Shown here: in pieces, positions 2,122 through 40,870 of the stretch | Numbering within the stretch: position 1 is the first letter of the stretch | Layout: each line of letters begins with the position of its first letter | Source: Blasia pusilla | Lineage: Eukaryota | Reading direction: 5' to 3' | NCBI GenBank assembly: GCA_050084515.1 | Contig: CM114271.1 | Coordinates: 11,222,001 to 11,286,000, forward strand | DNA length: 64,000 bases | The notes under the pieces: model-generated | Told to the model about the DNA's origin: nothing | Databases searched by the model: none | What the model saw: the letters and a program-made list of their open reading frames with translations, nothing else | Position numbers and translations under genes: made by a program

Positions 2122-2166
2122 TAAATATTCTCATTCTCAGTCTCCTCCCGTTGGAATCTTCTTGGA

Positions 2167-16839: not shown

Positions 16840-18809
16840 GGGGGTTGGTATTATGACAGGAGAGAGTAAGAGAGGAGAGGAAGAGAGGAAGAGAGGAGAG
16901 TCTCTCTTTAAAAAAAAAGGGCACAATCCGCCTCCTCTATTCAAAACTTCTTGATATTTTTGAAATTTTTGTTTGCTTTCAAATTCATGAAATCTTTAGA
17001 AGAGAGTAGCAAGTGGACCACATTCAGGCCTAAAGTAACCTTCTTTTTCCAGGCTTGGAAAAACAAGTAGACATCATAAGACCACTACAAACATTCTTCC
17101 ATCACTCTCCATTTGAGCCCAATTTTCTTCACATTGCCTATCTAAGCCAGCTCTGCAGTAAGCCGGGATGAGGGGTATTATTGTTGGAGGACCATCGGCA
17201 GATAATTTGACCAGAAGTAGCAATTTCCTCTCCATGATAGGTTCAAATAAAGACTCTAACTATGGTCTAAATAGACTCCTGTGCCCTTCAAGTTTTAACT
17301 TCTGAGAAGATGTGGTTGACATTATGGATTATTGATTCTTCTTCCAAAAGGCATTAAATATCCCCATCCGATCAATACTCATCCATGAGGGGGTTTTCCA
17401 CAACAAAACAAATCACTCATCATTGATGGTATCCGAAGACTTTCATGACAACATTGGATGATGTTGGCTCATGAATGGGTGCATAAAGTATACCATGGAC
17501 TACTGTGCGTTTGACAACTTAGTTTCACTATTCTCTCAGCCACTGAGAAATGTATGCATCAAGAAGAAAATGTGATCGGACTGAGAGGACAATTGAAGCA
17601 AAAGGTTGATAGCTGTCAGCAGTAATGAGGAACTGATGCACCCATGTCCCTTCATTTAAACCCTAAATGTCGGAATCAGACAAGTTGCACCCCTTCCAAC
17701 CCGTCAAAATTTGATGGATTGCATCCCTTGCAAGCAAGCACACCACAACAAAAGAAGGATCTTGACAAGTGATTCCATTCCACCCTGCAACCCATGAGAT
17801 TCCGACAGGTTGGGAATCTGACATGAGAATCCCACAGGTAGTAGGAATCCAACACGTCTCTGAAATACCGTCTTAGAGAAGAATGGTGTGACGATAATGG
17901 GGGAACGAGACAAAAGTCAAGAAGCCTGCCAGAATGCGTGAAAATTTGGACTAACAGGAAAAGAGTAGGATCACTCAATCAGCCAACCTGTCGGAATCCG
18001 ACAAGTTGTCTGAAAGGGATTTAAAATATTGTGACAAGTTACAACCCGTCGTAAAATAAGTTGCAAAATAAACAGCATCAAGTAGATAGTCCAACACAAT
18101 CGACAAGAACAAAAAATAATTCAGCAAAAGTTTACAAAAACCATCATGGTTCAAAAACTTCTTGTCCTTTATTACATCTGAGGGAAGCTCAGAAATGTAC
18201 ATTTGATCTAGTCTATGATTTCTTCAACCTTGTCATCTACAAATTTACTCCTAACTCTCCTAGGTTCCTATACAAAAGGAATGTCTTGGGATACAAGTGG
18301 CTCCTCTGGCCGATTGTAGATGGAGATTGTAAATGTTGGGGAATTTGAGAGCCTTGCCCCCCGCCTAGGTGCACCATAATGGTCCCATGTAACATTATTT
18401 GAGTTGCAACGCCTTCCTCAACAGTAAATCTTGTATGCTCTGTAAGGTGACACCCATCCAGTATCAATATATGCTCCGTCCTTAGAAAGCACTAAATCCC
18501 AACTCCAAAACTCTTTAGGGAAGCTGGGTCCAATAAATCTTTGAACTCAATCGTCATCGTCGGATAGCTCTTCCAAAATTACTGTCGGCTTTGCCCTCCC
18601 AATTTTTTTAATAGTAGGAAGTGACGATGATGTCACTATCAATGGTGGTTCTGGAACCAGAACTGTTGGCTTTGGAGGAGAGTTGTATACTCCCACTAGC
18701 CTCTCGTAATCTGCCTTTGCCTCTTTGCAAAGGTCAAAAATTTATGGCCTTCCCTCAAGGCAGAGAATGTTCTTGCCACTGTGCCAGACACCTCTGATAC
18801 TCGCCCCTT
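16840..18809 (+). mobile_element. MULE left end plus 3' end of cargo gene (fragment A; complementary half of copy C)
   Basis: Starts GGGGGTTGGTATT followed by (GAGAGGAA)n. Ends in cargo MTase sequence at TCGCCCCT, exactly where copy C breaks off at 56398. Confidence 0.85.
17090..17656 (-). pseudogene. Possible third, decayed ORF near the MULE left end (unknown product); homolog at ~19040-19615
   Basis: One frame reads NEGTWVHQFLITADSYQPFASIVLS...HGILYAPIHEPTSSNVVMKVFGYHQ... in both copies. The stops inspected are explainable by single C>T or G>A changes. Confidence 0.35.
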
Positions 18810-21089
18810 GGGGATTGGTATTCTGATAGGTGAGAGAGGAAGAGAGGAGAGTCTCTCTTAAAAAAAAAAGGGCAGAATATACCTCCTCTCTTCAAAACTT
18901 TTTGACATTTTTGAAATTTTTGTTTGCTTTCAAATTCATGAAATCTTTTGAAGAGAGTAGCAAGTGGACCACATTAGGGCCTAAAGTAACCTTCTTTTTC
19001 CGGGCTTGGAGAAAGAAGGTTACTTCACCAGACATCATAAGACCACTACAAACATCCTTCCATCACTCTCCATGTGAGCCCAATTTTCTTCACATTGCCT
19101 GTCTAAGCCAGCTCTACAGTAAGCCGGGCACAGGGGTATTATTGTTGGAGGACCATCGATAGATAATTTGACCAGAAGTAGCAATTTCATCTCAATGAAA
19201 GGTTTAAATAAAGACTCTAACTATAGTCTCAATAGACTCCTGTGCCCTTTAAGGTTTAACTTCCCTGAAGATGTGGTTGATATTATGGATTGTTGACTTT
19301 TCTTGCATTAAATATCCCATCTAATCAATATTCATCCATGAGGGGGTTTTCCACAACATAACAAATCACTCATCACTGATGGTAGCTGAAGACTTTCACG
19401 ACAGCATTGGATGATGTTGGCTCATGAATGGGTGCATAAAGTATATCATGGATTGTTGTGCGTTTGACAACTTAGTTCCACCATTCTCTCAGCCATTGAG
19501 AAATATATGCATCAAGAAAAAAATGTGATCAGATTGAGAGGACAATTGAAGCAAAAGGTTGATAGTTGTTAAGAGTAAAGAGGAACTCATGCACCCATGT
19601 CCCTTCATTCAGACCCTAAATGTCGGAATCCGACACGTTGCACCCATTCCAATCCGTCGGAATCCCACAAGTTGCAACTCTTGCAACCCGTCGGAATCCG
19701 ATGGGTTGCATCCCTTGCAAGCAAACACACCACAACAAAAAAAGGATCTTGATAAGTGATTCCATTCCACCCTGCAACCCATGAGAATCCGACAGGTTGA
19801 GAATCTCACATGAGAATCCGTCAAGTAGTAGGAATCCAGTGTTAGAGAAGAATGGTGTGACAAAATGGGGGAATGAGGCAAAAGTGAAGAAGCCTGCCAA
19901 AATGCCTGAAGAGTTGGACTAACAAGAAAAGAATAGGATCACTCAAGCAGCCAACCTGTCGGAATCTGACAAGCTACCTGAAAGGGGTTTAAAATGGTAA
20001 TCCGACCGATTGCAAAATAAACAGCCTCCAGTACATAGACCAACACAATCGACAAGAATGAAAAACAATTCAGCAAAGTTTACAAAAACCATCATGGTTC
20101 AAAAACTTCGTGTCCTTTATTACATCCGAGGAAAGCTCGGAAATGTACATTTGATCTAGTCTATGATTTCTTCAACCTCGTCATCTATAAATTCACTCCT
20201 AACTCTCCTAGGTTCCTATACAAAAGGAATGTCTTGGGATACAAGTGGCTCCTCTGGCCGATTGTAGACGGGGATCAAAAATGTTGGGGAATTCGAGAGC
20301 CTTGACCCCCCCTTCTAGGTACACCATAACGGTCCCATGTATAATGATTGGAGTGTCAACTCCTTCCTCGGCAATAAATCTTGTATGCTCTGCAAGGTGA
20401 CACCCAATCGAGTATCAATATGTGCTCTGTCCTTGGAAAGCACTAAATCCCTACTCCAAAACGCTTTAGGGAAGCTGGATCCAATAAATCTTTGAACACA
20501 CTCGTCATCGTCCGATAGCTCTTCCAGAATTACTCTCGGCTTTGCCCTTCCGATTTTTGGAATAGTAGGAAGTGACGATGGTGTCACTATCAATGGTGGT
20601 TCTGGAACCGGAGCTGTTGGCTTTGGGAGGCGAAGGATCCAGGGCTTACGTCTCCAAAATGTCAACGACAAGGCCGTCGAGTGGCCTCAATCTTATAGAT
20701 CGAATGAGGGAAGGGGAAGATCTTTACGGAAGCTCGGTAAGCTTTGATATTTGCTACAGAGTGCTGAATGGATGGTTGACCATGGGTGCTCACGTTTATG
20801 ACCATGTGGAGAAGGGACTCAAAACTACATTTGTCTGTGAGGTAAAAGCAGAAGACGTTGGCAGTTTGAAGATGTGTTGGTTACTCTTATTGGAGGTGGT
20901 GAAGGAAAACCAAAGGCCACCTCCGGAAATTTATGGATTCATGGCGGACAATGCACAACCTGGGTGGATTGCTATCAGGGAAGTGTTCGGGGATGGAGTG
21001 GTTCAACCAGAGAAGGAAAGGTCGGATGCTTTCCATTGGCAACAGTCTGTGACCCGGTACACCAAATCTTGCATCAAGGAGAATAAAGG

Positions 21090-22950: not shown

Positions 22951-23750
22951 ATTTCATGATGTTCGGAAATTAGGCGGAAGTTGGAGCTTCACGTTCAGGC
23001 TAGCTTACTATAGATCATAAATGATTACCCAACATATGGAACCATCTTTGGGCAGAGCCATGGTGGAAAACTAGGATGCACTATATGTGGGCCTCGGGTT
23101 GATTATGATTTCTCAAAGTCTTGTGGCAAACCCATATATGGTTATCACTGTCGGTAGCTTGCCATGAACCATCAATGTAGGACTCGTAGGTATGGATCTC
23201 ATTTCAATGAGAGTGTAGAACTTAGACCACATGTGCCAAGAATCCTTTCCAAAGAAATTTTTGGATGGGCAAATGAAAAAAAGATATATGATGAGAGTGG
23301 AAGTCGAGAAGACAATCCTAGTGATCCTTACAAGAGGATTGGAGTGAAAAGGTTGAGTATACTATATTCGATGCCTTACTGGCCAGTATCCTGCTTTCTA
23401 CCTTCTATATTCTTCCTTTTTTTCACAAAATAGTTGGTATAGATGAGAATAGCCTTTGTTCAATTTGAGTGTGGCAACAATATATTATGTTAAAATTGAG
23501 GATTGCAACATATTCCTTGATGATCCTTTCAGAATTTGCTTATACGTCATACATTAGATATAATGCATATGGAGAAAAATATTGCTGAGAATGTGGTTAA
23601 GACCTTGTTTGGGGTGAAAGATTCGGTGAAAGTCAGAAGAGATATGGAGGTTCATGGAATTCGAAGTCATTTATGGTTGCAGCCCCATCCCACTAGAGCC
23701 CAAGTATTTGTTAAACTTGTTTTTGATTATTGTCTATCTCCCCAAGACTT
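22950..23750 (+). pseudogene. CACTA (En/Spm) TnpD-like transposase fragment with one intron (~23386-23532)
   Basis: INDYPTYG...GKLGCTIC, GVKRLSILYSMPYW and LLIRHTLDIMHMEKNIAEN, typical of CACTA transposases. Confidence 0.85.
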
Positions 23751-26499
23751 GAATAAGACAGAGCATGTCACTCTACTCCAACGCTGCAAGGACAAAAAAA
23801 CCTTGAAACAGGCCATGGAATGCCAAGAATAACTACACGGGTGGTGGAGGAAGCATGCGATTGAGGGGAAATACAAAGAGTCGTGCTCTTGGCTCAGTTG
23901 GTGGACTATACGAATGAGACAATGGGGAAACTTCAAGCGGCAGGTGAGTTTAGTATTTGGTCCTGTCGAGCTCATGCTGAGAATTGTTTGAAAAGTTGCA
24001 GCTCAAGTTGAGAAGCGTGGGCACTATTAGGATTTGATTCTGAAGAAAACAAGCAACTTGTCGGATGCGAAAGGTTGCCTGAGTGTGCAACAAGTAGAAA
24101 ATTGACGGGTTGCATCAAGAATGTTTGTATTACCCGTCCGAGCGTGACATCATGCACGAGGAATGTTTGTGCAACCCGTTGGAACCCGACTAGTTGCATG
24201 AGTGTGCAACATGTCGAATCCCCATGCGTTGCAAGTTGCATGTGTGCAAGGCTTGTAAATAGTTCGACCCGGATGGGTTGCAAGACACAAGGCTGCAAGT
24301 TAACTCGGTCTACAACCCATCGGATTCCAAAAACTTGCGTCTGTCTGCAACGTGTCGGACATAAAGTAGTTGCGTGTGTATGCGACTCCTTGCATTCAGA
24401 CAGGTTGCGGTTGTCTCCAAGTCGCATCCAAACACGTTGCATCAGTTCAAGTTAACTGGAACCCGTCGAATTCCAATAGTTGCAAAGCTTCGTGTGTGAC
24501 ACTTCTTGCAAGCCAACGGAATCTGATAGGTTGCACAGGGATTTTCGAGACCGGACCGGCTTACTTCTCACAACACGTCCGATTCTGACGGGTTGGAGTA
24601 GCAAGTTTTTGGGTCTTAGGTTGGAGTAAAAGGTTACTGGGACATTCCAGGGATGTCTCCGACTTGCAACCCGTTTTAAGTCAAAGGATGGAAAATCCAT
24701 GTGCAACTTGTCGGATTCAGATGACTTCCACTTGGATCTTCCAGCCCGGAGTGGCCAAAGTGGGGGCTGGTATTCTGGCAAGAGAGAGGAAGAGAGGAGA
24801 GGAAGAGAGGAAGAGAGGAAGAGAGGAGAGTCTCTCTTAAAAAAAAAAGGGCCAAATCCGCCTCCTCTCTTCAAAAGGTTTTGACATATTTGAAAATTTT
24901 GTTTGCTTTCAAATTCATGAAATCTTTAGAAGAGAGTAGGTAGTGGTCCACATTCAGGCCTAAAGAAACCTCCTTTTTCCAGGGGGCGAAAAACAAGTAG
25001 ACATCATAACTCCACTACATCACTCTCCATGTGAGCCTAAGTTTATTCACATTACCTGTCTCAGTCTACAGTAAGCTATGCCCAAGGGTATTTTTGTTGG
25101 AGGACCATTGGCAAATAATTTGACCAGAAATAGCAATCTCATCTCAATGAAAGGTTGAAATAAAGACCAAATTTTTGAAATGTGAACATAGGAGACGATA
25201 ATTGAACCAAAAGATTGTTAGGTGTCTGGAGTAAAGAGGAACTGATGTCCCTTCATTCAGATCCTAAATCTGAGAAACCGAGAAGTTGTACCCCTCCCAA
25301 CCCGTCGGAATTTTACAGGTTGCAACTCTTGCAACCCGTCAGAATCAGATGGCTTGCAGCCCTTGCAAGCAAGCTCACCATAACAAAGAAAAGATTTTGA
25401 GAAGTGATTCCATTCCACCCTGCACCCACGAAAATCCAACCGGTTGGGAATCCGAAATGGCAATCCGACAAGTAGTAGGAATCCATCACATCTTAGAGAA
25501 GAAAATAAGCCTACCACTGGTTTGACGATACTAGGGGAACGAGCAAAAAGTGAAGAAGCCCGCCACAATGCCTTATAAGTTGGTCTCACAGGGAAAGAGT
25601 CTGATCACTCTAGCGGCCAACCTGTCGGAATTCGACAGATTGCCTCGAAATGGTTAAAAAGTTGCAATGGTCAAAAAGTGAAAAGTTGCAACCCATCGGA
25701 ATCAGACAAGTTGAAAAATAAACATTCTGAGGACCAAGACGAACACAATCGACAAGTCCAAAAAAAATATTCAACAAACTTTTACAAACACCATTATCGT
25801 TTGAAAAAATCTTGTCTTTTATTACATCCGAAGGGAGCTTGGAGATGTACATTTGATCTAGTCTATGATTTCTTTAGCCTCGTCATCTACGAATTTACTC
25901 CAAACTCTCCTAGGTTCCTGTACAAAAGGAATGTCATGGGATACAAGTGGCTCCTCTGGCCGATTGTAGACAGAGATCAAAAATGTTGGCGAATTCCCAC
26001 CGCCTTCCTCGGTAGTATATCTTGTACGCTGTGCAAGGTGACACCCATCAAGTATTAATATGTGCTCCGTCCTTGGAAACACCATCATGGAAATCCGACA
26101 AGTAGTAGGAATCTAACACGTCATAGAGAAAAGAAGAAGCCTCCTCCTTGTTTGACGATACTAGGGGAAGGAGCCAAAGTGAAGAAGCGCGCGAATATCT
26201 CTAAAGTTGGACTAATAGGGAAAGAGTCTAATCACTCACGCGGCCAACCTGTCGGAATCCGACAGGTTGCATGGAAGTGGTTAAAAAGGTGCAGTGGTCA
26301 AAAAGTGAAAAGTTGCAACCCGTGGGAATCTGACGGGTTGCAAAATAAACTATCGGAGTACATAGACAATCACATTCGACAAGACCAAAAAATATATTCA
26401 GCAAATTTTACAAACACCATCATCGTTCGAAAAAATCTTGTCCTTTATTACATCTAGAGGAAGCTCGGAACTGTACATTTGATCTATTCTATGAATTCT

Positions 26500-29400
26500 T
26501 TTGCCTCGTCATCAAATATATCCCTACCCCAAAATGCTACAGTCAAGCAGGGTCCTTGAGTTCTTTCAACTCACTCGTCATCGTCCGAGAGCTCTTCCAG
26601 AATTCGTGGGAAGTGACGATGGTGTCACTACCAATGGTGGGTCTGGAACCGGAGCTCTCGACTTCGGAGAAGAGTTGTACGACCCAACTAGCCTATTGTA
26701 ATCTGTCTTTGCCTCTTTGCAAAGGTCAAATAGTTCCCGCCTTCCCTCAAGGCACAGAATTTTCCTACCACTCTGCCATGCGCCTCTGATACTCGCCCCT
26801 AAAAGGCCCACTAAGTCGAACATCAAGTCACCCAGCCTTGACAAGAGCTCGATGAGCGTTTGCATCAGCGCTAGCAACTTTTCCCTTCCTCCAAGTAAGG
26901 GGGTACCATTTTGCATATAAATTCCCGGGGGAGAATTGTATAAACTATCTAAGCTGTACCCATCGGAGCATGGATCCACTCGATCAAGGATCTGAAACAC
27001 TTGGAAGTTCTGCTTGGGCCTTACAAAATAGTAGATAAAGGAGTGGTCCATCTGTAAAGAAGCAGGTTGGAAACAATGTCAACAACAAGAAAGGTCTACT
27101 ATCAGTATGGTGACACAATGTGCAACTCGTCCCCAAAGAACTTCGCTTAACCCCAGAGAACTTAGTTATAGTCCTAACATTGGAGCAACCTCTCAGAGTC
27201 CGACGGGTTGTTTTACAATCCGTCGGACTCCGTGTTAGTGATTTTTTTTGCACATGAGCAACCCGTCGGAAGGCGACAGGTTGCTGACTTAGAGCAGCCC
27301 ATGGTTGGCTAAGAGCAACCCGTCGCTTTCAGACGCGTTGCATCATTCCAGAAACACAAGGAAAATAATAAGCACTTGCAACCCGTCCGGTTCCGACGGG
27401 TTGCATTTACCCAATGGAGACTTGTGGTAAATTTGCAATGTGTCGCTTTCAGACGGATTGCACCACCAAAGTCTCCAGCTCAGACGATCCGACGGGTTGC
27501 ATGCAGAGATGCTACCCGTCGGAGCAAGACAATTTTTACATGGATTTAGAGCCCTTACCCAGATTTGACTCGTCACCGATCGGAGTGGGTACTCGTTCTT
27601 GATGACCCATGATTGCGTCGTCCTCCACTTTGGCGACCTCTTGACACATTGCAGGTTGAAGAGCTCGTCCTCGCTCCCTCTAGTCAAGACCAAGAAACAC
27701 CCATGTCACTGAGATAAGCATCTGCAAAGGAAAATAGGAGCGCGATCTGGTCATAAGAAAGAGGGACATTCGAGTCTGGGACACCGTCGAACGGATTCTT
27801 GTCCCACAAGCGCAACCCCGAGGGCAAATCAGCGACAAGGAGATCCACCGCCACCTCCTCGACCTCCCCATGGACTATCCTGGGAGCATGCACGTTTTTT
27901 TGAAGCTTCCGTCCTAGCGTTGTCAATTTGTCGATGGCGGGTGTCGACGCTTGGGAACTGAAACTTTGCAGCTCATCCAAAAGATTCGTGCAGTGAATGA
28001 TGACGCTTGTCTGGGTCGTTGTTTCTCTATGTCTTCCCAAGGATGATGAAGTGTATTCCACATCCTGGTCTGCTCCTTGGGACAAACCTGATGCCTCTCA
28101 CTTCCGCTTCTCCCGAGTCTGCGGTCGGCTTGTTGGGGTCTCTATTACCTTAGACTCTGGTGGAGTTTTTTTGGCGGAGGACCTGGTCTGACCCTCTCTC
28201 CCCGCTCGACCAGACGATTCCGCCTCTTGCCTTGAATTCTCAGCCTCTTTTTTGGAAGACTCGGCCTTGGAATTCTTTGATCCCCTTGCCTCGGCTTTGA
28301 GACCTGTTGTAGATTTTTCCTTGGCGGTGACGACCTTGGACACCAACTCCGCTTTCTTGAGGGCTTGCTCCTCCGCATCTCCTTCAAAAAAGTCTTCAGG
28401 CTGCACGAAATTTGGGATGTCATCCCTACCTGCGGCCACTGCATCATACACCCATCGAAGATTGTTATCGGTGATGTCCTCCAGGTCGTTGAAGTCCAAC
28501 CAGATGGGGCAATTCTCCACCTTCCAGTCGGACATGCTTTGAGCCATCTCCATGTCGTATATGGAAAATGTCTCTCCATCACGCGGGGAAGCCCACAATT
28601 TGCAAGCTGCCGGTATTTTTTGCCACGTACCTGCATTCTTACAATGGACGAGGTACCTGAACACCATGCGTTGGGTAGCTCTTTGTCGAGATGCATCGGC
28701 CGCCTACTCCTCAAGATCTTGCTTTTTCTTTGCGGAATCCCTTTTCTTCACCAAGGTCTGCTTGAGGGAGGATGTGATCCTTGAACATCGTCCTGAAGCC
28801 TAGGTATTTAATGGACTTGTATTGGATTTCATCCGGCCAAAGTTCGAAATCTTCAGCACTCTCTAGGTTTGCTTCCTTTGGAATAGGCTCTATTTTTTTC
28901 AGCTCTGCTTGGAGACCCACGAGCATGGACTTCCCGAGAAGCCGCAACGCGTCCCAAAATGACCATTCACGGAGCCTGTGAGAGATCACTGGATCAGAGA
29001 CACCCGGAGGATGGTGTACCGCCCTCTTTTGGGCCTCTGTGCCCTCGAGACTGATTTTCATCAGTCGGATTCTCATAAATTCCGAAATTCCAGACAAGGA
29101 AAATCTATGGACGCGGTCGAGAGACACTTTCTACCCAATCCGACCCTGCGGATCTTCATCCCTCTTCCACTGGCACTTGATTATCGCCTTTAGCTCCTTG
29201 AAGAAATCGGGGCCAAGTTTGGGGTTGAGAATGGCGATGTAGCGTTGCATCTTGCTTGCAGTGTACTTCGTAGTTGCAGATACTGCAACTTGGATGAACT
29301 TAGCACTCTCAGACGCAGACACGTTCTCCCTCCGCTCCAGCTCCAATGAAGCGCTCTTCTTGGTGGCCTGTATCTTTGACCAGCAAAGGATTGTCACGGC

Positions 29401-31549
29401 TGCATCTTGGGAAATAAATGTATTTGCCCAAGTATTTTTTTTTATTTGAGCCCCCTTCGCCAACATCTCATTTACAAGGGTGTCGCCTAAGAACCCCTTG
29501 TACTCTACCAGGTGCGTCGTTAGCACTTTCTTCACCCGATCGCAATCTTGGATCCAGTGGTGGATGACATTCCCCTCGGATACAATCCTGCACATCCAAA
29601 CACAATATAAGAATTTTTTCAAGCTACATGGGTTCCTACAACCCGTCGGACCTTGACAGGTCGCCATACCTCATGGTCAGAATGGTAGCTACGAGCTAAC
29701 TCGTAGCAACCCATTGGAGTTTGACGGATTGCATTCATATTTGTGATTGCCTGGTTACAACCCGTCAGACTCCGACGGATTGTCAGATAATTTGTCTTTA
29801 GAGAGTGGTCTCCGCGGAAAAAGTGAACATATCAACACGTCGGAGTCCGATATGTTGCGCAATTTCATGTAAAGCTGCAATTTGACGCCAAAAATCAAGC
29901 TCCCCTACTCCGATCACCTACTCGTGCCGGCGAATGCAACCCGTCGAAGTCCAACGAGTTGCTTTCGGCCAAAAACATCCTTAAAACAGCGGCCAGTCAA
30001 GCAACTTGTCGGACTCCGACGAGTTGCTTTCAGCCAAAAACATCCTAAAAATAGTGGCCAGTCAAGCAACTCGTTGGACTCCGACGAGTTGCTTTCAGCC
30101 AAAAACATCCTAAAAATAGCGGCCAGTCAAGCAACTCGTCAAACTCCGACGACTTGCTTTCTGCCAAAAACATTCTATAAATAGCGGCAAGTCAACCAAC
30201 TCGTCGGACTTCGACGAGTGGCTTTAAGGCATCCGATGTTTTGTTACCACTAGTTAAAAAACTCATCGGAGTCCAAAAATTTGCAGTAATCAAAATAAAG
30301 GAGAAGGAAACTTACGTGTTCATGGCATGCATGGCCATTTCCACGGTCGCCATGTGATGAGGGTATGGATGTAGCACGATTGCCTTCACGCAGAAATGCG
30401 CCTCCAATGAGTTTTGGCGCTCCTCTGCAAATTGGGTCCACGCCATGAACATGTGGTTTCCATCCCAGATGAAGAAATAGAGGTTCCGCATCCAGGTGAA
30501 TTCCGTCAACTCAATCGCTCTTCTGAATTCCTGATCTCTCATCCTCCAGAATGTGTCGAGCGCTTCCAAGTCCTCCTCTGTCACCAGCGCTTGAGTTCCA
30601 TGTTCATTGTAAGGCTGAACATAGAACGGAGGGAAGTTGTCGACGTAGGATGCTGTCACTGCCGATTGTTTCATCTTTGCAATATCCTCATCAGACTGAA
30701 TTTTGCGGACGTATTCCATTGTCCGTAATCGGAAAAGTGGAATTCTCGGGGCGTTCTGGCCCTCCATCAGTGCCATCTGCTTTACCACCTGTCACAATGG
30801 GGACAAGGTCAATAAACTACACTGAATTGCCAATGAATTGCAACATGGGCCTTCACATAACTCAAAGAACAAAGATCGTATCTTACCCGCTCGAAGATTG
30901 GGTCGGTGTCTTGGCCCGCCAACTGCTCTGGCACAGCAACTGGCAAGTCCACTGTAAACTCATCGATCCGATAAAGGTAGATTTCTTCCGCCGGGCTAAG
31001 AGACGAGGAAGACCGCTCTCCTGCTTCTTCAGAGATGTCCACCATCTCCACGCTGGCGGTCCTCATGACCTCATCATCCGTCACTTGAACTTTGCCCGTT
31101 TCCTCAGCCGATTTTATATTGATTGTGTCCCCGGACTTCATCGCGGACATTTCCTGCATCTCAACACTTTCGGTTGGACGGGCCAGGCTTTCTTCAATGG
31201 CAATCGCTTTTTCCCTTCGAGCTTTTGCCAATTCTGCTCTCCTCACCAACGTGTCTAGACGCTTCTTTTCACCCTTCTCCTCGACGATTCTTTTCTTCAA
31301 GGCTTGCGACGCCTCAACCTCCGCGTTATGTTTTTCAAGCACCTCCTTAACACGTTTTGCAAGAAGCTCTTGCCTATGCATCTTTGCTTCCCTTTTGCGC
31401 TCCTCGATCTCTTGCTGCCTTATCTCATTGGCTGAACGAGGCCCTAGAGATGGTGACGCAGGAGTCTTGGACTTAGGAGTGAAGCTACCAGCCTTGCTTG
31501 CTTGAGATTTTTTCCTCGTCATTGTTCCTGATAATGCCTCCTCCTCCAC
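26500..31549 (-). pseudogene. Cargo gene: coiled-coil, ParB/Srx-like domain, unknown middle region, beta-class N4/N6 DNA methyltransferase-like domain (about 4 exons)
   Basis: Predicted exons ~31549-30887, 30788-30316, 29587-27559 and 27051-~26500 with GT-AG borders. ParB-like PRIPLFRLR...FPPFYV...FFIWDGNHMFMAW. MTase-like VDLLVADLPSG (motif IV position), then REK..LMQTLIELLSRLGDLMFDLVGLLGASIRGAWQSGRKILCLE (motifs X, I, II). Confidence 0.7.
29936..30222. repeat. Tandem array, 65-bp period (27-bp palindrome plus 38-bp spacer), 5 units, in cargo intron 2
   Basis: Palindromes start at 29936, 30001, 30066, 30131 and 30196. Confidence 0.9.
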
Positions 31550-32701
31550 AACAAAATTACTTTATGTGCACGATGAGTTGCCTCGATGAGTCGCCTTGAT
31601 GAGTGGCTCGGATGAGTTGCCTCGATGAGTCGCTTGAATCGTCTCGCGATGAGTCGCCGTGTGAAGCGCCCCTTGGTATTTGGTCCGCTGCTGCACTGAC
31701 GAGCAATCAAGATCGCAAAACAAAAAACCGGAAATGAGCAAACCCTCGCCTATTTATACTTTTCGAGCCGTTGGGTCACACCGTCATTCCAACGGCAACG
31801 TGTTGGCTGTCATGGAGGTTTAGACGTGAAAACCACCAATCCGACGGGTTGGAGGCATCTGTCCTAACAGAGCTATCCTGGCAACCCATCGGAGTCCGAC
31901 AAGTTGCACGCCTCCGCCGTCTTGGGGGAAGAACGCGAGGTAACCGCGCAACCCGTCGGAGATCGGGGGGTTGGACCCTTCCCTCATCTTGGGATAACAA
32001 GGCGGGGTACCCGCGCAACTCGTCGGAGGCCGACGGGTTGCACACTTCCTTCATGCAAGCGTTACAAGGCGAGGCACTTGCGCAACCCGTCGGAGGCTAA
32101 CGGGTTGCACGCTTCCCTCATCTTGGGGTAATAGGCGAGGTACCTGGGCAACCCATCGGTTACTGATAGGTTGCACTCTTTTCTATCCCTCGGGTAACAA
32201 AGCAATGCGACAAAGGATAGTTCCGAGGCAACCTCATGCAATCCGACGGGTCACAAGGTCTACCCTGAGTTGGACAATCCCGTAACAGTCCCCAACGATT
32301 AGTTACCTTAGCAAATGCAAGCGATGTCTCATGTTTGATGTTAGAAAAATCGTCTCAAAAGACCATTGGTCAGCATGAAGGGGATACCAACCTAACGGAC
32401 ACCGACGGCTTCCAATTTGCATTGGGACACGAAAACAAAAAATGGAATTGGGTGCTTCGCAACCCACGTCTCTGATTCCCAAATTTTGCAACCCATTGGA
32501 CTCCAATAGGTTGCGAAAAAATTAAATCCATCATGCCAGACGATCTCACCTACCAAACTTCATCTTGTCAGTCAAATTTTGTCACGAGAATCTCAGTCCC
32601 TATTCACTATAAATTGAACATTCTCATTCTCATTCTCATACCCATTCCCATTCTTATCCTCATTCTTATTCTCAATCTCCTCCCGATGGAATCTTTTGGG
32701 A

Positions 32702-35607
32702 ATGGATAATTATGTGAAGCTCACTTGTGGCAATCATCTAGTGGCCTTTCCTCAATCAAAAATCGTTCGACCGCAAGCTCGTGAGTCTTTCATACCAATG
32801 GATGAAAATTTTCTCTCAATTTGATTTCGTCTTTAAATTGGAACAATCTTTGTGTCCAAGGATGTTAGGGTGGACGGTACGGAGGACATAATAGGTGAGA
32901 CAATCCAGCCAGTGATTGCAGACCGTAAAGTAGGGAATCTCCTACCTCTAGCAAATGGTAAATACAGAGTTTACGTCTTGCCTCTGAATTCCTCAGTTTC
33001 CCAAGTAGACGGTCGAGAATTTTCTAGTGCACCGAGCTCTACGTTTGCAACTCCTAGCTTAGTAGATCCGGCATCGACTCCAACTTCACACGTTAGTTAC
33101 AATGTTGTACTTGTGAAGAAATTCCCGATGTTTTCAACCTCATTGAATATGTAGGACACCAACCGGGCCCTCTATCCACCTACTTGTTCCTCTTGCGAGT
33201 ATCAAGCAATAGTTTGCTATCGTCTCTGGCCTTGAAAATGTTTAAGCACATTCTTGTCAAGGAGCTGCTGCCCACGTATGATGGTAATTGCATTTTAGAG
33301 TTGCCTCCACTTGTTGCTCCTTCTCAAAAGAAAGATGGAGGATGCTTGAAGGGTATGGACTTCAATTCCAGATGGTCCTTGGATTGTATCCCGCCGCCAA
33401 TGCGTTGGAGCCTTGGAGTGTAGAAGTCCAGCATGCCCGTATCTAGAGCGCAATGGGTTGGTCAATACGTCACAATTCCCTCCCAAGAATGCAGAAACTC
33501 CATATGAGGTCGGTGCCACCATACAGTCGGGAGGCCATCGATGTCCTCATTTTCTGGCATCCCCTTTCTACGTTGGAGCGTGTCCTCCATACATATTTTT
33601 CATTGCCCACGACTTGGGTTCCACGTCAGAGTACACAAGGTTGGCAGTTCATGTTGGCTCCCACACTCATCCTGTGACTGATGCAATTCAGAGACACATC
33701 AAGGAGGATATGGCGAAGAAAGCACCTGAGGTCTACAGAAACTCTCCGGGTTCAAAGCCTGGAGTGATCAAGTTAACAACAGCATCACAAATTTGTGAAC
33801 AACTGCTTGGAATCCCTGGGCAGGGCAAGATCACGGCTGGTGAGGAGAACCAACTCTGGGAAAATCTCGCATTTCTCGCTGATCCTGAATGCTTCAGGAA
33901 TTTACTCCATCAAATACGCGTACAGGATGGAAAGATGGCCGAAATGGATGCCATTTCCAGAATCAAGGCCAACTCCATATTTCCATTCATTCAGAGATGG
34001 CAATTCATGGGCCAAGGAGGTGAAGGATCTAGGGCCTATGTCTTCAAAATATCAACGACAGGTCCGTCAAGTGGCCTCGATCTTATAGATCGAATGAGGG
34101 AAGCGGAAGATCTTTACCGTAGCTGGGTAAGCTTTGATATTTGCTAAAGAGTGCTGAACAGATGGTTGACAATGGGTGCTCACGTTTTTGACCATGTGGA
34201 GAAGGGACTCAAAACTATGTTTGTCTGTGAAGTAAAAGCAGAAGACGTTGGCAGTTTGAAGATGTGCTAGTTACTCTTATTGGAGGTGGTGAAGGAAAAC
34301 AAAAGGCCACCTGCGGAAATTTATGGATTCATGGCAGAAAATGCACAACCTGGGTGCATTGCTATCAGGGAAGTGTTTGGGGATGGAGAGGTTCAACCAG
34401 AGAGGGAAAGGTTGGATGCTTTCCATTGGCAACAATCTGTGACCCGATACACCAAATCTTGCATCAAGGAGAATAAGAGGACAGAGCATGTCACTCTACT
34501 CCAACGCTGCAAGGACAGCAAAACCTTGAAATACGCCATGGAATGCAAAGAAGAAATTCATGGGTGGTAGAGGAAACATGCGATTGAGGGGAAGTACAAA
34601 GAGTTATGCTCTTGGCTGAGTTGGTGGACTGTACAAATGAGACACTGGGGAAACTTCATGCGGGAGGTGAGTTCACTAATTTATCTCGCTGAAAATTGTT
34701 TGAAGAGTTGCAGCTCAAGTTGAGAAGCGTGGGCACTATAGGGATTTCAAACCAAAGAAACCAAGCAACTTGTTAGATGCAACAAGTTGCATGAGTGTTC
34801 AACCCATTGCTTACCGACCGGTTGCCTGAGTGTGCAACCAATCGGAAAGCGACGGGTTGCAAGTCGCACGGCCAAATTTACTTGCAACCCGTCGGAATCG
34901 GACGGGTTGACGAGTTGCTTGAGAGTGCAACCAATTGGAAAAGGACAGGTTGATGGTTTTCCTGAGTGTGCAACCAGTCAGAAAAGGAAGGGTTGCAAGT
35001 CGTCTGGCCAAATTTACTTGCAACCCATCGGAATCGAACGGGTTGCACTAGGTGGTTCCTAGGTGTTGCAACACGTCAAGAACCGACAAGTCGCAGAGTA
35101 ATTCATGGGATGCCTTGGCCCATCAACCCATCAGGTTCCAACATGTAGCTTATTTCTTTGACTTTAGAGCTATTTTTGTTCCCTTCTCACATTGGGGTCG
35201 TCGCAGGGATTGAACATTCATGAAAATGCCCTCTTCCCCAACACAAGTAGAGCAGAAAGTATTCATTCCTCCTAGAGGTCGTCACAAGCATGCCAAAGAA
35301 TTTCACTCATGGAGGCATGCCAACAAGACCAGGCAAGAGCAATGCTATAGTCTACAGCATCCCATATCTTCCTCACAAAAGGCATAACAAAAGGAAGGGT
35401 GCCTTCGATCTACGAGCTCTATGTCAGGGCGGCTGTGAGATCTGGTGATGAGAAACTCTATGTAGAAGCCTTCAACCGGTGCGTAGCAAGAACTCCCCTC
35501 GAGCAAGACGTACACATTGGTGGGGATATTTGTGGGCGCGTTTCAAGACGTCCCATACAAATGGTGGTAGAGCAGTTTGAGCGAGACTCGTGGAGACCAG
35601 ATAAGTA
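32702..35607 (+). pseudogene. MULE transposase, copy B (3'-truncated, multiple stops)
   Basis: MDNYVKLTCG start, GCM-like region, WVSFDIC, GFMAENA, DAFHWQQ, palindrome-containing intron, PNTSRAESIHS. Confidence 0.85.
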
Positions 35608-38600
35608 GAGGTGCGGTTAGAGGAGAGGAAGAGAGGAGAGAGGAAACTACCTTCAACCAAAAGAGATATGTTTTTTGAAGAGAGTTTCCTGTGATTTAAA
35701 GAGAGGAACTTTTTGTGTGAATTTTTTGCACTTTTCTGCTCAGTTCTTAAGCACTCCCACAGTTTTTTTTTCCTCTTCCATATTTTGGCAACCCCTCTGA
35801 GTCCAACGAGTTGCAAATTGCACAAAATTTAGAAAACTGAAAAATCAGTGGAATCATAAATGTGGAACAAATCACTTTTTCCATCCAAGGTCTGGAAAAA
35901 ATCTATCATTTGCCCTTGCCTGAATAAAGTTCAAGCTCAAAGTGAAAGTTCTAGAAAAATGAAAGTACAGTCTAAAATCTCATTTTGCATCCTTAAAGTG
36001 GTTTGTTTAAAATACTTCGCACTTCTTTGAGGGACACAATTGGTTGGTGGATTCCTACTCCTACCTGCGACTCTCTTAAAACTACAAGCAACACATAGTA
36101 CATCTGCTTACAAGGGAAATACCTTTTGCCACTTGTCTCTCTTTGGACAAAGTCATCACATGAACATGTGGGAAAGCAACAGATGTGCACCACATACACC
36201 CTTGTGACACTTGAATTTACAGTGTTGTTCCTGACCCAATACATCCTTCATATTCCATTGCCATTGTGGACATCTTTTGTGGCGATGATCTCCATTTTTG
36301 CCTCTCGAGCTGATGCAATTCGCTTTGCTCTCTCCAACGTTGGCCTACACATTCTGTTTCTCTTCACCCCATTTCTAGACTCAAACAGAAATAGTGGATT
36401 GAGATCATCCACCTTCTGCGGGTACATGTTGACGTCAATCTTGGGTTGAATACGAAATGCAAAGGTCTCTATAATGCGAACATGCTCTGAACTTCCTCCA
36501 TCTACGAGTTTGAAACTGACACTTGTAAGATTGTCCACTTTGTCTTGAGTGCAATTTGTACCTGCGGCGATGGGCCAAATCGTGGGGGTATTCCTCGGAG
36601 CTCCAATGGCAGCCGGATAAGACTTGCGGAAAGCGCAAGATTCATTTGGATAGAAGAAGTACTTCAATTGATCCCTGGCCCTTGTGGAACGATCAAAGGT
36701 TTTGAGTCCCCAAAACCCAAGCAGTGGTCGTACAATCCTTCTACAGTTCTTATTTAGGAAAGTGCAGCATGCTCTCTTAATGCCATCAGATCCTGCCCTG
36801 CAGGTGGGTCCATATCCAGGGTTGCTCCGAGATATATGCCACTGTTTCCGGCAACCTGAAACAGTGGCATATATCTCGGATGACCAGAATCCCATTTTGT
36901 TGAACCACCCCAGTGACCAGATGTTGCGAACTTCCAGCAACGGAGGGCTTTTGAGATAAAACATTTATTGATTTTGGAGAAGTTACACCATCACGGATTT
37001 GGGAGCGATCCGGGGTCCTCGAATACCTAGGCGGCGTAATTTCCTCATCCAAATCAATCACCAGATTTGTTCCTTGATGGTGCCTCTTCACCTGCCTGAA
37101 GTCAAGATACTTATCTGGTCTCCACAAGTCTCGCTCGGACTGCTCTACCACCATCTGTATGGGACGTCTTGAAATACGCCCACAAATATCTCCACCAATG
37201 TGTACGTCTTGCTCGAGGGGAGTTCCTGCTACGCATTGATTGAAGGCTTCCACATAGAGTTTCTCATCACCCGATCTCACAGTCGCCCTGACATAGAGCT
37301 CGTAGATCGAAGGCCCCCTTCCTTTTGTTATGCCTTTTGTGAGGAAGATATGGGATGTTGTAGACTGTAGCATTGCTCTTGCCTGGTCTTGTTGGCATGC
37401 CTCCACAAGTGAAATTCTTTGGCATGCTTGTGACGACCTCCACAAGGAATGAACACTTTCTACTCCACTTGTGTTGGGGCAGAGGGCATTTTCATGAATG
37501 TTCAATCCCTGCAACAACGGCACTATGAGAAGGGAACCAAAATAGCTCTATGAGCAAAGAAAAAAGCTACATGTCGAAACCAGACGGGTTGCAAGTTGGA
37601 GGCATCCCATGAATGACTCTGTAACCCGATAGTTTCCGACGTGTTGCAACACCCAGGAACCACCTAGTGCAACCCGTCGGATTTCGACGGGTTGCAAGTA
37701 AATTTGGCCATGGGACTTGCAACCCGTCCGTTTCTGACTGGTTCCGCTCTCAGGCAACCCGTCAACCCATCTGATTCCGACGTGTTGCAAGTAAATTTGG
37801 CCGTGCGACTTGCAACCCGTGGGGTTCCGACTGGTTGCACACTCAGCCAACCCGTCGGTAAGCGACGGGTTGAACACTCATGCGACTTGTCGCATCCGAC
37901 AAGTTGCTTGGTTTCTTTGGTTTGAAATCGCTATAGTGCCTACGCTTCTCACCTTTAGCTGCAACTCTTCAAACAATTTTCAGCGAGACAAATTAGTGAA
38001 CTCACCTCCCGTAGGAAGTTTCCCCATTGTCTCATTTGTATAGTCCACCAACTCAGCCAAGAGCATAACTCTTTGTACTTCCCCTCAATCGCATGTTTCC
38101 TCCACCACCCATGAATTTTTTCTTGGCATTCCATGACGTGTTTCAAGGTTTTTCTGTCCTTGCAGCGTTGGAGTAGAGTGACATGCTCTGTCTTATTATT
38201 CTCCTTGATGCAAGATTTGGTGTAGCGGGTCACAGACTGTTGCCCATGGAAAGCATCCGACCTTTCTCTCTCTGGTTGAACCTCCCCACCCCAAAACACT
38301 TCATTGATAGCAATCCACCCAGCTTGTGCATTGTCCGCCATGAACCCATAAATTTCCGGAGTGGCCTTTTGTTTTCCTTCACCACCTCCAATAAGAGTAA
38401 CCAACACATCTTCAAACTACCAACGTCTTCTGCTTTTACTTCATAGACAAATATAGTTTTGAGTCCCTTCTCCACATGGTCATAAACATGAGCATCCATT
38501 GTCAACCATCCGTTCAGCACTCTGTATCAAATAGCAAAGCTTACCCAATTGCCGTAAAGATCTTCCCCTTCCCTCATTCGATCTATAAGATCGAGGCCAT

Positions 38601-38657
38601 TCGACAGACCTGTCATTGAAATTTTGAAGACAAAGGCCCTAGATCCTTCGCCTCCCT

Positions 38658-39428
38658 TATCATGCGCATACACATCGCTACACAACATACATCGCTGTCA
38701 CCGAACACACACACAAACACGCATGATTTCATGCTAACTCATGGCATCCAAACAACGAGACAAGAAGAACCAAAATATCTCCAAGAAAGTAAGATCCAAT
38801 CTCTCTCTCCACCATCTCACACCATAGCTCTCAAAGGTGTGCACTCTCTCTCATGTCAAACCAAACCCACTCTCCTAATGAGAGGCTTGGGTTACACTCA
38901 CAAGGCAAGGTACCATAGCTCCGCTGCCTCATGCCAAGAGATTCAACAAAGAGAGAATGAGCTCTCAAGCTCTCTCTCCTTGAGGTATACCCCTCTCCTC
39001 TCCCAAGCTCTCTCCATGGTAACCTATTCTCCCAAGTCACCTCCTTGGCTCTTGACCTGATGTAGGAGGTCAAGGGCTACTTACCAAAAATAGTAAGTCG
39101 ATCATATACTCAAAATGGTACTTACCTAAAATAGCAAGTCTCTCAATATGGCTCCAAATGAGCCAAAACGAAGGGGAAACCTGCTATCTCAAGTTTCCAA
39201 GGGCCTCAGCAGGTCACCCTCGACCTACTGGGCGTGTCCTCCACTACTCATGAAGCCGATCTATTAGATCCCACCGATCTATCCTAAAAGACGCGTACAA
39301 TTTGCCGTGCGCATACACATCGCTACACAACATACATCGCTGTCACCGAACACACACACAAACACCCATGATCCCATGCTAACTCATGGCATCCAAACAA
39401 CGAGACAAGAAGAACCAAAATATCTCCA
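38658..39428 (-). repeat. 3' terminal repeat block B1-A2-B2 of the gypsy element
   Basis: 38658-38785 repeats at ~39303-39428 (B, ~126 bp); 38786-39299 repeats at 48502-49014 (A, ~512 bp). Confidence 0.9.
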
Positions 39429-39610
39429 ATCGCCCCCCTAGCTGGTGGTTAGGTCCCTCTAACTCCAGATAGCCATCTATCCCTACCTACCATGACATAC
39501 ATCTCTCGGACGCTAAGAGCAAGAAGGCCGGGTGCTCATGTGGCCCCATCGTTAGTCGCCTCCTTGTCATCCATGTCATAGACACAAGTTGGAATGTAGA
39601 ACTTCCTTCT

Positions 39611-39765
39611 CTATGTACATCTGGGACACATCCATCGTCCCTGAGGAACCCTAGTGAGAGGTGGCGTCAAACATGCCATATGCCATCCTCTCGAACACCC
39701 ATCACAGACTAGCATCGTGGGCGCACCATGGGCGCGTAACCACACAACATACAACGCAAGCCTGG
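39611..39765 (-). pseudogene. PHD finger at the C-terminus of Pol
   Basis: CMLCG (frameshift) ...MLVCDGCSRGWHMACLTPPLTRVPQGRWMCPRCT* is a C4HC3 pattern. It is not in the supplied ORF track. Confidence 0.85.
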
Positions 39766-39879
39766 CAGGAACTACTACTAAGCTCGGATCTTTGTACCAT
39801 CAATGTTAGGAAGGTGACATGGCGCAAAATTACGCACATGGTCCTTCCATACCATACCATCGCGTCCCTCCAAAGCAAG

Positions 39880-40870
39880 AGAACACCCGATGGAAAAATG
39901 TCACGCACTCTCGGATAGTGCGCCTGCGATCACATCCAACGCCGCCGATCTTTGTGTCTTGCCGCAAATAGACATAATCTCCTTGATGAAACCTCCGGAT
40001 AGTTGGTCGATAACCACCACCTCGAATAGTCGCATACCTCAACGTATCCCGATGATGTGCAATCGCCAAGTTCTCAAACGCCATGGGCATCACTCTCAAA
40101 TAACTCAGCCCTCTCGAGAACATGCTCGCACCCATACATCTGGGTCATCAAGGTTCAAAGCACTCACACCAAAGATCTCGACGAATGGCCGCAGGTAAAT
40201 CTGGCTCTCGGCCATAAAGTAGCAAGTACGGTGAAAAAGACGCTAAGGATGCCTGCTGAATCTGTATCCCATCGCCAACCATGGCAACTGGAGGTCCCAA
40301 TCTCCTAGGTGACCTCTCTGCAAGCCATACTTGCGTAAACCCCTCTTCACCGTCTGCACAACTCTCTCCGCTAATCCATCCGCCTCAGGATGATCTCGCG
40401 AAGTCGTGCGGTGGTCGATCAGCGCCTGATCACACAAGGCCTGGAACTCACCGCGAAACTCGGTACCCTGGTCTGTCAACACCTCAGCTGGTGCGCCATA
40501 ATGACTCAGCACTCTGTCAAGGAAGGCATAAGCTACTCCCTCACTTGCTTTGTCAGGCAATGCAACCAACTCGATCCACTTCGAGAAGTGCTCGACCATC
40601 ACCAACACATAACGACTGTGACGCTCCGTCAAGGGCAAAGGTCATGCAAAATCCAAACTCCATCTATACCCTAAGCCCATGATCGGCAATGGATGCAACT
40701 GTGGAGTCGGAGCATTGAACAATGCTCGGACCCGATCACACACCATGCACTGGCAACAAATCGCTGAACGCCGCCTGCATGCCTCGCCACCAATATCGAA
40801 CTGGAGCAAGCTATACGTCCGCTTCACCCCAAAGTGACCCAACTCGTGGGCATGCTTTGCACTAGTCGTG
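39880..40870 (-). pseudogene. Integrase (HHCC, rve core, C-terminal extension)
   Basis: GHFGVKRT...CMVC, WSLDFA, VEHFSKWIELVAL, LTDQGTEF, HPEADGLAER. Confidence 0.9.

Follow-up and report, generated by a model that had tools for sequence, protein, structure and literature searches.

A putative ParB-fold and methyltransferase-like accessory gene in a Mutator-like transposon family of Blasia pusilla

Why would a cut-and-paste DNA transposon of a land plant carry, beside its transposase, a spliced gene that resembles a ParB protein joined to a DNA methyltransferase? The question is raised by a 64-kb stretch of the Blasia pusilla genome (GenBank assembly GCA_050084515.1, contig CM114271.1, positions 11,222,001 to 11,286,000), here called the window and numbered from its first nucleotide. 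In an original prediction, positions 24762-35607 were described as a large Mutator-like transposon with such a cargo gene. We conclude that this interval is best explained as an old, truncated and mutated copy of a ~12-kb Mutator-like (MULE) transposon family, and give this explanation as a whole a probability of roughly 0.6. The proposed architecture of the cargo protein, with a Lys/Glu-rich N-terminus, a ParB fold, a helical middle region of ~600 amino acids (aa) and a methylase fold, together with its status as an accessory gene of the element, is highly probable.

A divergent cargo gene shared by four transposon copies

Self-comparison and lists of open reading frames (ORFs) indicated that much of the window consists of nested, decayed copies of one DNA transposon family, split into two subfamilies. 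Copy A (24762-35607) is the copy under study. Copy B/E is inverted, running from 56399 to 49015 and then from 38655 to 35607, and is split by a ~10-kb long terminal repeat (LTR) retrotransposon. Copy C occupies 1-6521, and copy D, which represents the second subfamily with ~74% DNA identity to A, covers 56399-64000 and extends beyond the window edge. Copy F (16840-18810) is a fragment and copy G (18811 to ~21243) an internal-deletion derivative. A MULE-like transposase gene and a divergent cargo gene are paired in four copies (A, B/E, C and D) from the two subfamilies. Every copy had been said to carry this pair, which is true of these four but not of G or F.

The cargo gene of copy A lies on the minus strand, divergent from the transposase gene, and comprises four exons (~3,609 nt, ~1,200 codons). 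Its splice junctions were placed by sequence signals and by colinearity with gene models of the liverwort Riccia. Canonical in-phase splice sites (CGG/GTAAGA...ACAG/G, CAC/GTAAGT...TGCAG/G and TGG/GTAAGG...TTTACAG/A, slashes marking exon-intron boundaries) join the open pieces, in agreement with the divergent spliced gene predicted earlier. The motifs quoted for that gene were all located on the minus strand of copy A: IPLFRLR at 30723-30743, PPFYV at 30618-30632, WDGNH at 30453-30467, VDLLVADLPSG at 27816-27848 and REKLLALMQTLIELLSRLGDLMFDLVGLLGASIRGAWQSGRKILCLEG at 26743-26886. One spelling needs correction, since SRPGDLVFD occurs in copy B at 56.3 kb but copy A has SRLGDLMFD.

Exon 1 (30887-31522, minus strand, as are all parts of this gene) has 212 codons from ATG, is Lys/Glu-rich with no recognised domain, and is open in copies A, C and D. 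After intron 1 (30789-30886; 98 nt, GTAAGA...ACAG, phase 0), exon 2 (30316-30788) encodes the predicted ParB/sulfiredoxin (Srx)-fold domain of 157 aa and ends at the donor CAC/GTAAGT. Intron 2 (29588-30315, 728 nt) contains a tandem array of 4.5 x 65 bp at 29936-30225. Exon 3 (27559-29587; acceptor TGCAG/G, donor TGG/GTAAGG) codes for the helical middle region together with the methylase-like domain's N-terminal half; it includes VDLLVADLPSG, GCFLVL and SWVIKNEYP and is colinear with residues 328-712 of Riccia protein P0241. The last intron (27052-27558, 507 nt; donor TGG/GTAAGG, acceptor TACAG/A) holds palindrome sites at 27258 and 27378. Exon 4 (26578-27051; acceptor TTTACAG/ATG) aligns to P0241 residues 1057-1180 and encodes the motif X helix, motif I (GDLMFDLVGLLGAS) and motif II (ILCLEG), ending at a TGA stop at 26578-26580.

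Exon 3 of copy A is broken by TAG codons at 29131 and 28704, a TGA at 28098 and frameshifts near 28780 and 27700. The TGA at 28098 may belong to a small intron (candidate GTAATA...CCAAG, 75 nt) or have been passed on as a defect by a shared source copy. The ParB and methylase parts were also considered as two genes, and this was rejected on the in-phase GTAAGT donor after the ParB exon and on the Riccia proteins, which are single and colinear.

Predicted ParB/sulfiredoxin fold of exon 2

AlphaFold2 modelled the ParB exon with a predicted local distance difference test (pLDDT) score of 91.7 and a predicted template modelling (pTM) score of 0.86, from a 113-row alignment. In a VIA structure search, 16 of 48,161 PDB representative chains matched at Z of at least 2, and the top 11 (Z 8.1 to 3.3) are all folds of ParB, KorB or Srx type. 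KorB ranks first (Z 8.1, root mean square deviation 2.2, 90 aligned), followed by PadC (7.6), Arabidopsis sulfiredoxin (6.8), Pnob8 ParB-N (6.3), a serine kinase (6.0), human sulfiredoxin (5.7), Atu1540 (5.4) and SbnI (4.8), and then by SspE, Spo0J and BrxU; we take these top matches to form one superfamily. Foldseek against PDB with the same model returned almost exclusively ParB, Noc, KorB, Srx and PadC proteins in the top ~35 rows (E 0.02-0.6).

The family consensus contains the box VWDGNHRLxAW, in which G, N and H are nearly invariant. Its WDGNHR core resembles the G-x-H-R box of sulfiredoxin and ParB-like proteins. The nucleotide-binding box reads GERRxR in ParB and GCHR in Srx. The product of exon 2 is thus predicted from its model to be a ParB/sulfiredoxin-fold domain, which bears out the ParB/Srx-like segment noticed earlier.

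A predicted methyltransferase fold with a non-canonical catalytic motif

The C-terminal part was compared with the amino-methyltransferases of PF01555 (N6_N4_Mtase). Three Riccia homologues, P0241, P0239 and P0242, match this Pfam family at E 5.2e-5, 9.4e-6 and 2.5e-5 (23.7, 26.2 and 24.8 bits), scores that fall below the gathering cut-off of 26.7 bits and cover profile positions 165-218 only (the motif X/I region). The window exons gave no PF01555 match in the Pfam search. Aligned by hhalign with a PF01555 clade, the last exon of the window gene reached 93% probability (E 3.1e-7, 69 columns), and a hidden Markov model of this clade put the last exons of copies A and B in the top two places among 1,385 window ORFs (E 0.002 and 0.008, respectively), numbers that are biased upward because the clade was picked through its weak similarity to the query.

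Structural evidence comes from an AlphaFold2 model of Riccia P0242 (pLDDT 50.5, pTM 0.52; 12-row alignment with no bacterial sequences), to which the window exons align across both methylase halves. Foldseek found 45 matches at E ≤ 1e-3, led by M1.HpyAVI (1.9e-9) and then CcrM, with M.BceJIV, M.MboIIA, M.RsrI, the rotifer N4-cytosine (N4C) methylase (8s9n) and M.PvuII further down (range of the named matches 1.9e-9 to 2.7e-5). VIA placed 11 beta-class N6-adenine (N6A)/N4C enzymes at Z 12.0-9.8 (MboIIA, PvuII and CcrM among them), MT-A70 proteins at 8.8-6.6, and unrelated folds at 6.0 or lower. The Pfam matches in Riccia, the clade comparison of the last exon and the structural model agree, and these three lines therefore give the fold and the permuted motif order (IV...X-I-II) of beta-class amino-methylases. 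The beta-class methyltransferase-like character proposed at the outset is supported by them; for PF01555 itself, the structural match was obtained through the Riccia model, but Pfam stays just under its cut-off.

Motif IV reads DLPSG in the window and DLPTG or DMPSG/DMPTG in Riccia, and the canonical catalytic motif (D/N/S)PP(Y/F/W) was found in neither the window nor the Riccia members. Motif I is DLVGLLGAS (degenerate) in the window and DFAGGWGAT in Riccia, and motif II is LCLEG and IVAET, respectively. Judged from the model of the Riccia homologue, the C-terminal part is an amino-methyltransferase fold in the circularly permuted beta-class order, with a consistently non-canonical catalytic signature.

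Could this domain be a working methyltransferase that marks its own element, through N6-methyladenine (6mA) at the GANTC core of the palindromes described below or N4-methylcytosine (4mC) at CpGs? Its fold is that of beta-class N6A/N4C enzymes, Riccia members retain a glycine-rich motif I (DFAGGWGAT) and the acidic residue of motif II (IVAET), and 55 of the 91 palindrome sites have a GANTC centre. DLP[ST]G is kept between liverwort and window and is therefore not a product of random decay. Eukaryotic N4C methylases of the same fold are present in rotifers (PDB 8s9n) and, according to the available part of the report, in Marchantia (10.1101/2021.02.12.428880). Against activity, motif IV lacks both the second Pro and the aromatic residue of (D/N/S)PP(Y/F/W), motif I of the window lineage is DLVGLLGAS, and the sub-threshold PF01555 match is limited to profile positions 165-218. 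We consider such an enzyme unlikely, and equally a mark of this kind that would tag the element or block host silencing by 5-methylcytosine. Stacking on the flipped base is the task of the motif IV aromatic residue, and the paralogues METTL14 (EPPL) and MTA9 lack activity. The altered motif IV (DLP[ST]G) and the degenerate window motif I make binding likelier than methylation and argue for a pseudo-enzyme role.

Homologues and conservation of the cargo gene

A HMMER scan with exon 2 over 1.84 billion representatives returned 118 proteins at E ≤ 1e-3, 29 of them at E ≤ 1e-10 (best 2.9e-20). Thirty homologue representatives were looked up: 15 belong to the liverwort Riccia sorocarpa, where they are annotated as hypothetical proteins, and 2 come from the fern Adiantum nelumboides, which thus also holds ParB-domain homologues; no red-algal name occurs among the 30 (17 with a named organism). 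The cluster members of the Riccia representatives, many of them truncated, are spread over several large Riccia contigs. Riccia P0241 (1,207 aa) and P0132 (1,191 aa) follow the window gene colinearly through the ParB domain, the middle region and both methylase halves, which places the cargo gene in a multi-copy plant family whose architecture is conserved.

The prokaryotic origin suggested earlier for this module drew no support from sequence: no significant link to bacterial or phage proteins was found by plasmid and phage tblastn or by the exon 2 HMMER scan. The ParB exon had no tblastn match in phages, and the last exon matched 43 plasmid records, all at E 0.06-10; 10 of the 15 listed records fall under 'site-specific DNA-methyltransferase' genes, which is a lead only. 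A word-indexed protein search, restricted to longer proteins, returned nothing for the ParB exon or the transposase core, and two single-protein metagenome locus scans returned no relative. Against PDB sequences, phmmer with the ParB exon and the last exon gave chance-level rows only, and 12 full-length homologues searched as a profile matched nothing at E ≤ 1.

The ratio of nonsynonymous to synonymous substitution rates (dN/dS) was estimated by the Nei-Gojobori method between and within subfamilies. Between subfamilies it ranges from 0.11 to 0.39 and is below 1 everywhere, with 0.23 (55 codons) and 0.12 (54 codons) for the ParB exon, 0.20, 0.19 and 0.11 for exon 3, and 0.39 (70 codons) for the methylase tail. 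Exon 1 gives 0.29 (240 codons, A-C and A-D). Within subfamilies the range is 0.21-0.67, which fits neutral decay after insertion on top of earlier constraint; the putative intron part of one read-through ORF gives 0.67. On these ratios, selection appears to have kept the cargo gene between the two subfamilies here. The gene was earlier called a fixed module, and the non-neutral ratios between subfamilies and the colinear liverwort proteins of 1,191-1,207 aa agree with that description.

These data also bear on whether the gene is a captured or host-derived passenger without a role in the element, as in Pack-MULEs, or whether its plant homologues are host genes and the transposon link is specific to this genome. 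The broken cargo genes of A, B and D, with that of C mostly outside the window, would suit such a passenger, as would the UniRef name 'Trimethylguanosine synthase' carried by P0239, P0241 and P0242 of Riccia sorocarpa. However, Pfam detects no trimethylguanosine-synthase family in these three proteins, just the sub-threshold N6_N4_Mtase match, and the name was probably assigned automatically and in error. Four copies in two subfamilies ~74% identical hold the same gene in the same place with dN/dS of 0.11-0.39, half of the representatives looked up (15 of 30) are from Riccia with cluster members on several large contigs, and the whole 1,200-aa architecture is retained rather than a fragment. 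A passenger origin is very improbable.

Element-specific palindromes and possible self-recognition

A 27-nt CpG-rich palindrome, GCAACCCGTCGGANTCCGACGGGTTGC, has 43 sites in the window at ≤3 mismatches, whereas 100 shuffles yielded none; at ≤5 mismatches the count rises to 91. None lies in the window stretches outside the family (6-16, 20-24 and 38-50 kb). Tandem arrays with periods of 64-67 bp occupy the bidirectional promoter and intron 2, and the two subfamilies have them in matching positions. In copy A, the intergenic region between the divergent genes (31523-32836) holds an array of 4.2 x 67 bp with palindromes at 31881-32159; its equivalents lie at 1254-1866 (C), 61798-62328 (D) and ~50.8-51.1 kb (B). 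Each 65-bp unit of the intron 2 array contains one palindrome, and this array recurs at 52758-53236 (B) and 59402-59686 (D). Further sites stand singly in the subterminal parts of the element and in the last intron.

Where sites deviate from the palindrome consensus, they mostly do so by C>T or G>A at a CpG, as expected for methylated CpGs in dead copies. T-A double changes were considered as compensatory evolution, and this was dropped: they recur as shared changes inside the tandem arrays, and the remaining substitutions resemble decay of CpGs. At the palindrome centre, A/T at the flanking pair creates GANTC in 55 of the 91 sites (for example 19683-19709, 52886-52912 and 59404-59430). The beta-class adenine methylases CcrM and HinfI recognise GANTC. 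The GANTC core may be a coincidence of the arm sequence.

By analogy, a ParB-type module in an element with its own palindrome arrays suggests self-recognition. The cargo protein would be an element-encoded accessory factor, not a captured passenger, and would recognise the family's own 27-nt palindrome. Its ParB-like part would act as in parS/ParB-type systems, and the methylase-like domain would be mainly a DNA-gripping pseudo-enzyme. The outcome could be assembly of a transposition complex, or shielding of the element from host CG methylation in the way VANC acts for the VANDAL MULEs. Binding of the protein to its own palindromes without methylation is a tentative proposal, which we rate as less likely than not. 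A stronger form, in which the family has a plant counterpart of parS/ParB fused to a methylase-fold reader or writer that loads onto more than 20 GANTC-core palindromes per element, seems doubtful.

The palindromes might instead be transposase sites, with the ParB-methylase-like protein a helper in some other role (a MURB-like insertion factor, a nucleoside triphosphate-dependent clamp or a nuclease). Palindromes are dense in both subterminal regions (26.2-26.3, 34.8-35.0, 37.6-37.9 and 4.3-4.5 kb), which is where MULE, CACTA and hAT transposases bind, and MuDR also has a second gene, mudrB, of unknown mechanism. The arrays, however, adjoin the cargo gene and sit inside it (promoter and intron 2) in both subfamilies, and ParB-family proteins typically bind palindromes. 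The ParB-type PAG3 of red algae likewise lies beside tandem inverted repeats, as described in the available part of the report (10.1101/2025.02.11.637652). This alternative is quite improbable, and self-recognition by the cargo protein is retained as the working proposal.

Several points weigh against our interpretation. The two folds were recognised with uneven strength. For the ParB domain, none of 296 Foldseek matches reaches E ≤ 1e-3 (best E 0.02), and the top VIA score of Z 8.1 is at a level that the search tool flags as a possible common arrangement. PF02195 is matched by none of the 113 ParB-domain homologues at E ≤ 0.01, so that the earlier ParB assignment holds by fold but not by profile, and no window exon matches any Pfam family at E ≤ 1. 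The Arg of the DGNHR box is lost in the window copies (GNHM in A, GNYM in B and GNHE in D). For the methylase-like domain, the model is of a Riccia homologue rather than of the window protein and has a pLDDT of 50.5; the PF01555 clade used for hhalign and the HMM was selected through its similarity to the query; the larger alignment A6 gives an hhalign probability of just 38% (E 3.4e-4); and the N-terminal half gives 12 columns at 0.25%. As to the gene, it is interrupted by stops and frameshifts in A, B and D, and in C it lies mostly outside the window, with just the open exon 1 and the first 55 ParB-exon codons inside. An in-frame TGA is common to A (28098-28100) and B (55074-55076), within a 55-nt stretch without differences. 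The protein and the palindrome are linked only by co-occurrence, and the palindromes could be transposase binding sites.

Transposase and organization of the element

The transposase gene of copy A (32837-35607, plus strand) consists of several decayed ORFs and is cut at 35607 before the SWIM-type finger. Copy C shows the finger pattern, CxCxnCxH, at 4580-6247, where Pfam scores SWIM at E 0.19 and 11.8 bits (cut-off 19.6). Pfam, run on 17 window ORFs, gave no match for the transposase at E ≤ 1, including PF10551 and PF00872. A search of the ESM atlas with the DDE core of copy G gave a first match scoring 0.95, and the clusters shown are MULE or ZSWIM1-3 RNaseH-like families, which is again a lead only. 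A D...D...CxxH-like pattern of the transposase was read by eye. At the insertions of G into F and of D into B, the retained flanks overlap by TCGCCCCT (8-9 bp), from which a target duplication of 8-9 bp is inferred; no copy has both ends in clean flanks. The left and right ends (right ends of C and E) have in common a GA-rich stretch of ~60 nt, and their outermost ~20 nt differ. From the ESM atlas lead, the CxCxnCxH finger and the 8-9 bp flank overlap, Mutator-like is the best label for the element, in line with the original prediction, and membership is not proven.

A CACTA-type transposase was also considered and dropped, as the ORF with the LDIMHMEKN-type motif belongs to a separate fragment left of the element. 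This ORF (23524-23750, plus strand) contains HTLDIMHMEKNIAENV, is not part of the element and has no Pfam match; it looks like a fragment of a CACTA/En-Spm transposase.

The left terminus of copy A (24762-24870) begins GGGGGCTGGTATTCTGGCA and runs into the GA-rich terminal repeat. The same start is found in four copies (24762, 16840, ~18811 and 56399). Of the element bounds given earlier, 24762 is thus a genuine left terminus, but the natural right end is not at 35607, where the interior of copy A meets the terminus of the inverted copy B/E; at its right, A is short of ~1.5 kb relative to copy C (5022 to 6521). The right part of copy B/E (35607-38655, minus strand) abuts A at 35607, and the copy resumes at 49015-56399 past the LTR retrotransposon. 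The left subterminal region of A (24871-26577) is non-coding, with palindrome sites and an internal direct duplication of ~630 bp (25457-25887 versus 26087-26513, 84% identity) that is single in the other copies.

Copy G runs from its left end through the last ~90 nt of the cargo gene straight into the middle of the transposase gene (equivalent of A 34016), and is likely a non-autonomous form. The description of the family as autonomous was not borne out, every copy in the window being decayed. The insertions of G into F (18800-18835) and of D into B (56385-56405) hit the same nucleotide of the cargo gene in opposite orientations, within codons of methylase motif I (GLLGA/S). These same-site insertions suggest a target hot spot or self-targeting.

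The LTR retrotransposon that splits copy B/E spans 38656-49014, and its reverse transcriptase matches RVT_1 at E 3e-30. Its ORFs lie on the minus strand at 41476-42342, 42466-43287 and 43446-44045, and a second copy is found at ~6879-9047. Just upstream of the reverse transcriptase, ORFs have cytosine-C5 methylase motifs (DLFGG..., ...ILENVP... and ...ERAMGFP), with a Pfam DNA_methylase score of E 4.6e-4 (20.2 bits, below the cut-off of 22). Retrotransposons with C5 methylases are known from dinoflagellates and Klebsormidium. Directly left of the copy F terminus is a copia-type gag fragment (16490-16954, plus strand; Retrotran_gag_2 E 9.8e-4, below the cut-off).

Relation to known systems

The PF02195 and PF01555 fusions of bacteria, phages and plasmids (beta-class enzymes CcrM, M.RsrI, M.MboIIA and M.PvuII) have the same N-to-C order of the two folds. 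The cargo protein resembles them in its permuted IV...X-I-II order, in structural Z of 9.8-12.0 and in its location on a mobile element. Unlike them, it has no significant sequence match (best plasmid tblastn E 0.06; no phage match), its two domains are ~600 aa apart, its motif IV is DLP[ST]G, and its gene has GT-AG introns and sits in a eukaryotic cut-and-paste transposon.

The fold of VANC is, to our knowledge, unrelated to that of the cargo protein, and we know of no methylase-like or ParB-like domain reported for VANC. The likeness to Arabidopsis VANDAL/VANC lies in the element: a MULE with an extra gene for which action on its own DNA is proposed, and family-specific short motifs that accumulate in non-coding parts of the element, as far as described in the available text (10.1101/2025.02.11.637652). 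According to the same part of that report, a 2025 preprint, PAG2 (an N6-adenine methylase with SET) and PAG3 (ParB-like with a 2-oxoglutarate (2OG) oxygenase) are accessory genes of red-algal Plavaka, Mutator and Zisupton transposons (10.1101/2025.02.11.637652). They are the nearest published parallel and share with the present family the presence of ParB-like and DNA-methylase-like functions on large DNA transposons and, for PAG3, the tandem inverted-repeat arrays adjoining the ParB-type gene; binding of its own element is proposed there for the PAG3 protein, the same idea as here (10.1101/2025.02.11.637652). As they are described in that text, the two domains reside on separate proteins with SET and 2OG oxygenase partners, whereas here they are in one protein with neither partner detected, and the hosts here are land plants; this comparison is by description, not by sequence. 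The Kyakuja-Dileera-Zisupton (KDZ)/Plavaka elements of basidiomycetes with TET/JBP dioxygenases likewise have a fixed accessory gene of DNA-modification type, on the account available (10.1101/2025.02.11.637652), but differ in transposase superfamily, enzyme fold and host kingdom.

Other amino-methylase folds have lost their catalytic residues. METTL14 and MTA9 have substituted catalytic residues and are thought to bind nucleic acid, not to methylate it. The methylase domain of the DIRS1 retrotransposon is transposon-encoded, has substituted catalytic residues and is also thought to bind nucleic acid, according to the available part of the source (PMC4738411). METTL14, MTA9 and DIRS1 belong, however, to other clades (MT-A70 and PCIF1-like), and MT-A70 proteins scored Z 6.6-8.8 versus 9.8-12.0 for the beta class. 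In the same available part, the eukaryotic acquisitions of ParB-linked methylases are from chlorophytes, chytrids and haptophytes and are not land-plant transposon genes (PMC4738411). A literature search, with Repbase and Dfam outside it, found no description of this transposon family in land plants. The statement that no such MULE family had been described thus stands for land plants, but related accessory genes exist in red algae, as the available part of one report describes (10.1101/2025.02.11.637652).

Significance of the family

Transposons with chromatin or DNA-modification tools of their own are rare, the examples found being VANDAL/VANC, the red-algal PAG genes and the TET/JBP-bearing KDZ elements of fungi. 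The present family would add a land-plant case in which ParB-type and methylase-type modules are joined in a single protein, with a cargo gene conserved at least between the liverwort Riccia and the window genome and dense palindromes of its own on the element. The analysis also gives predicted folds to multi-copy Riccia 'hypothetical proteins' in several clusters and to the ParB domain of the Adiantum homologues.

If the stronger form of self-recognition were true, a 6mA/4mC mark or the shielding of CpGs would allow escape from host CG methylation, an anti-silencing system conserved from liverworts to ferns, possibly with ancestry shared between this self-recognition system and the red-algal PAG genes. 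The family thus bears on how DNA transposons may recognise themselves and handle host silencing in non-seed plants.

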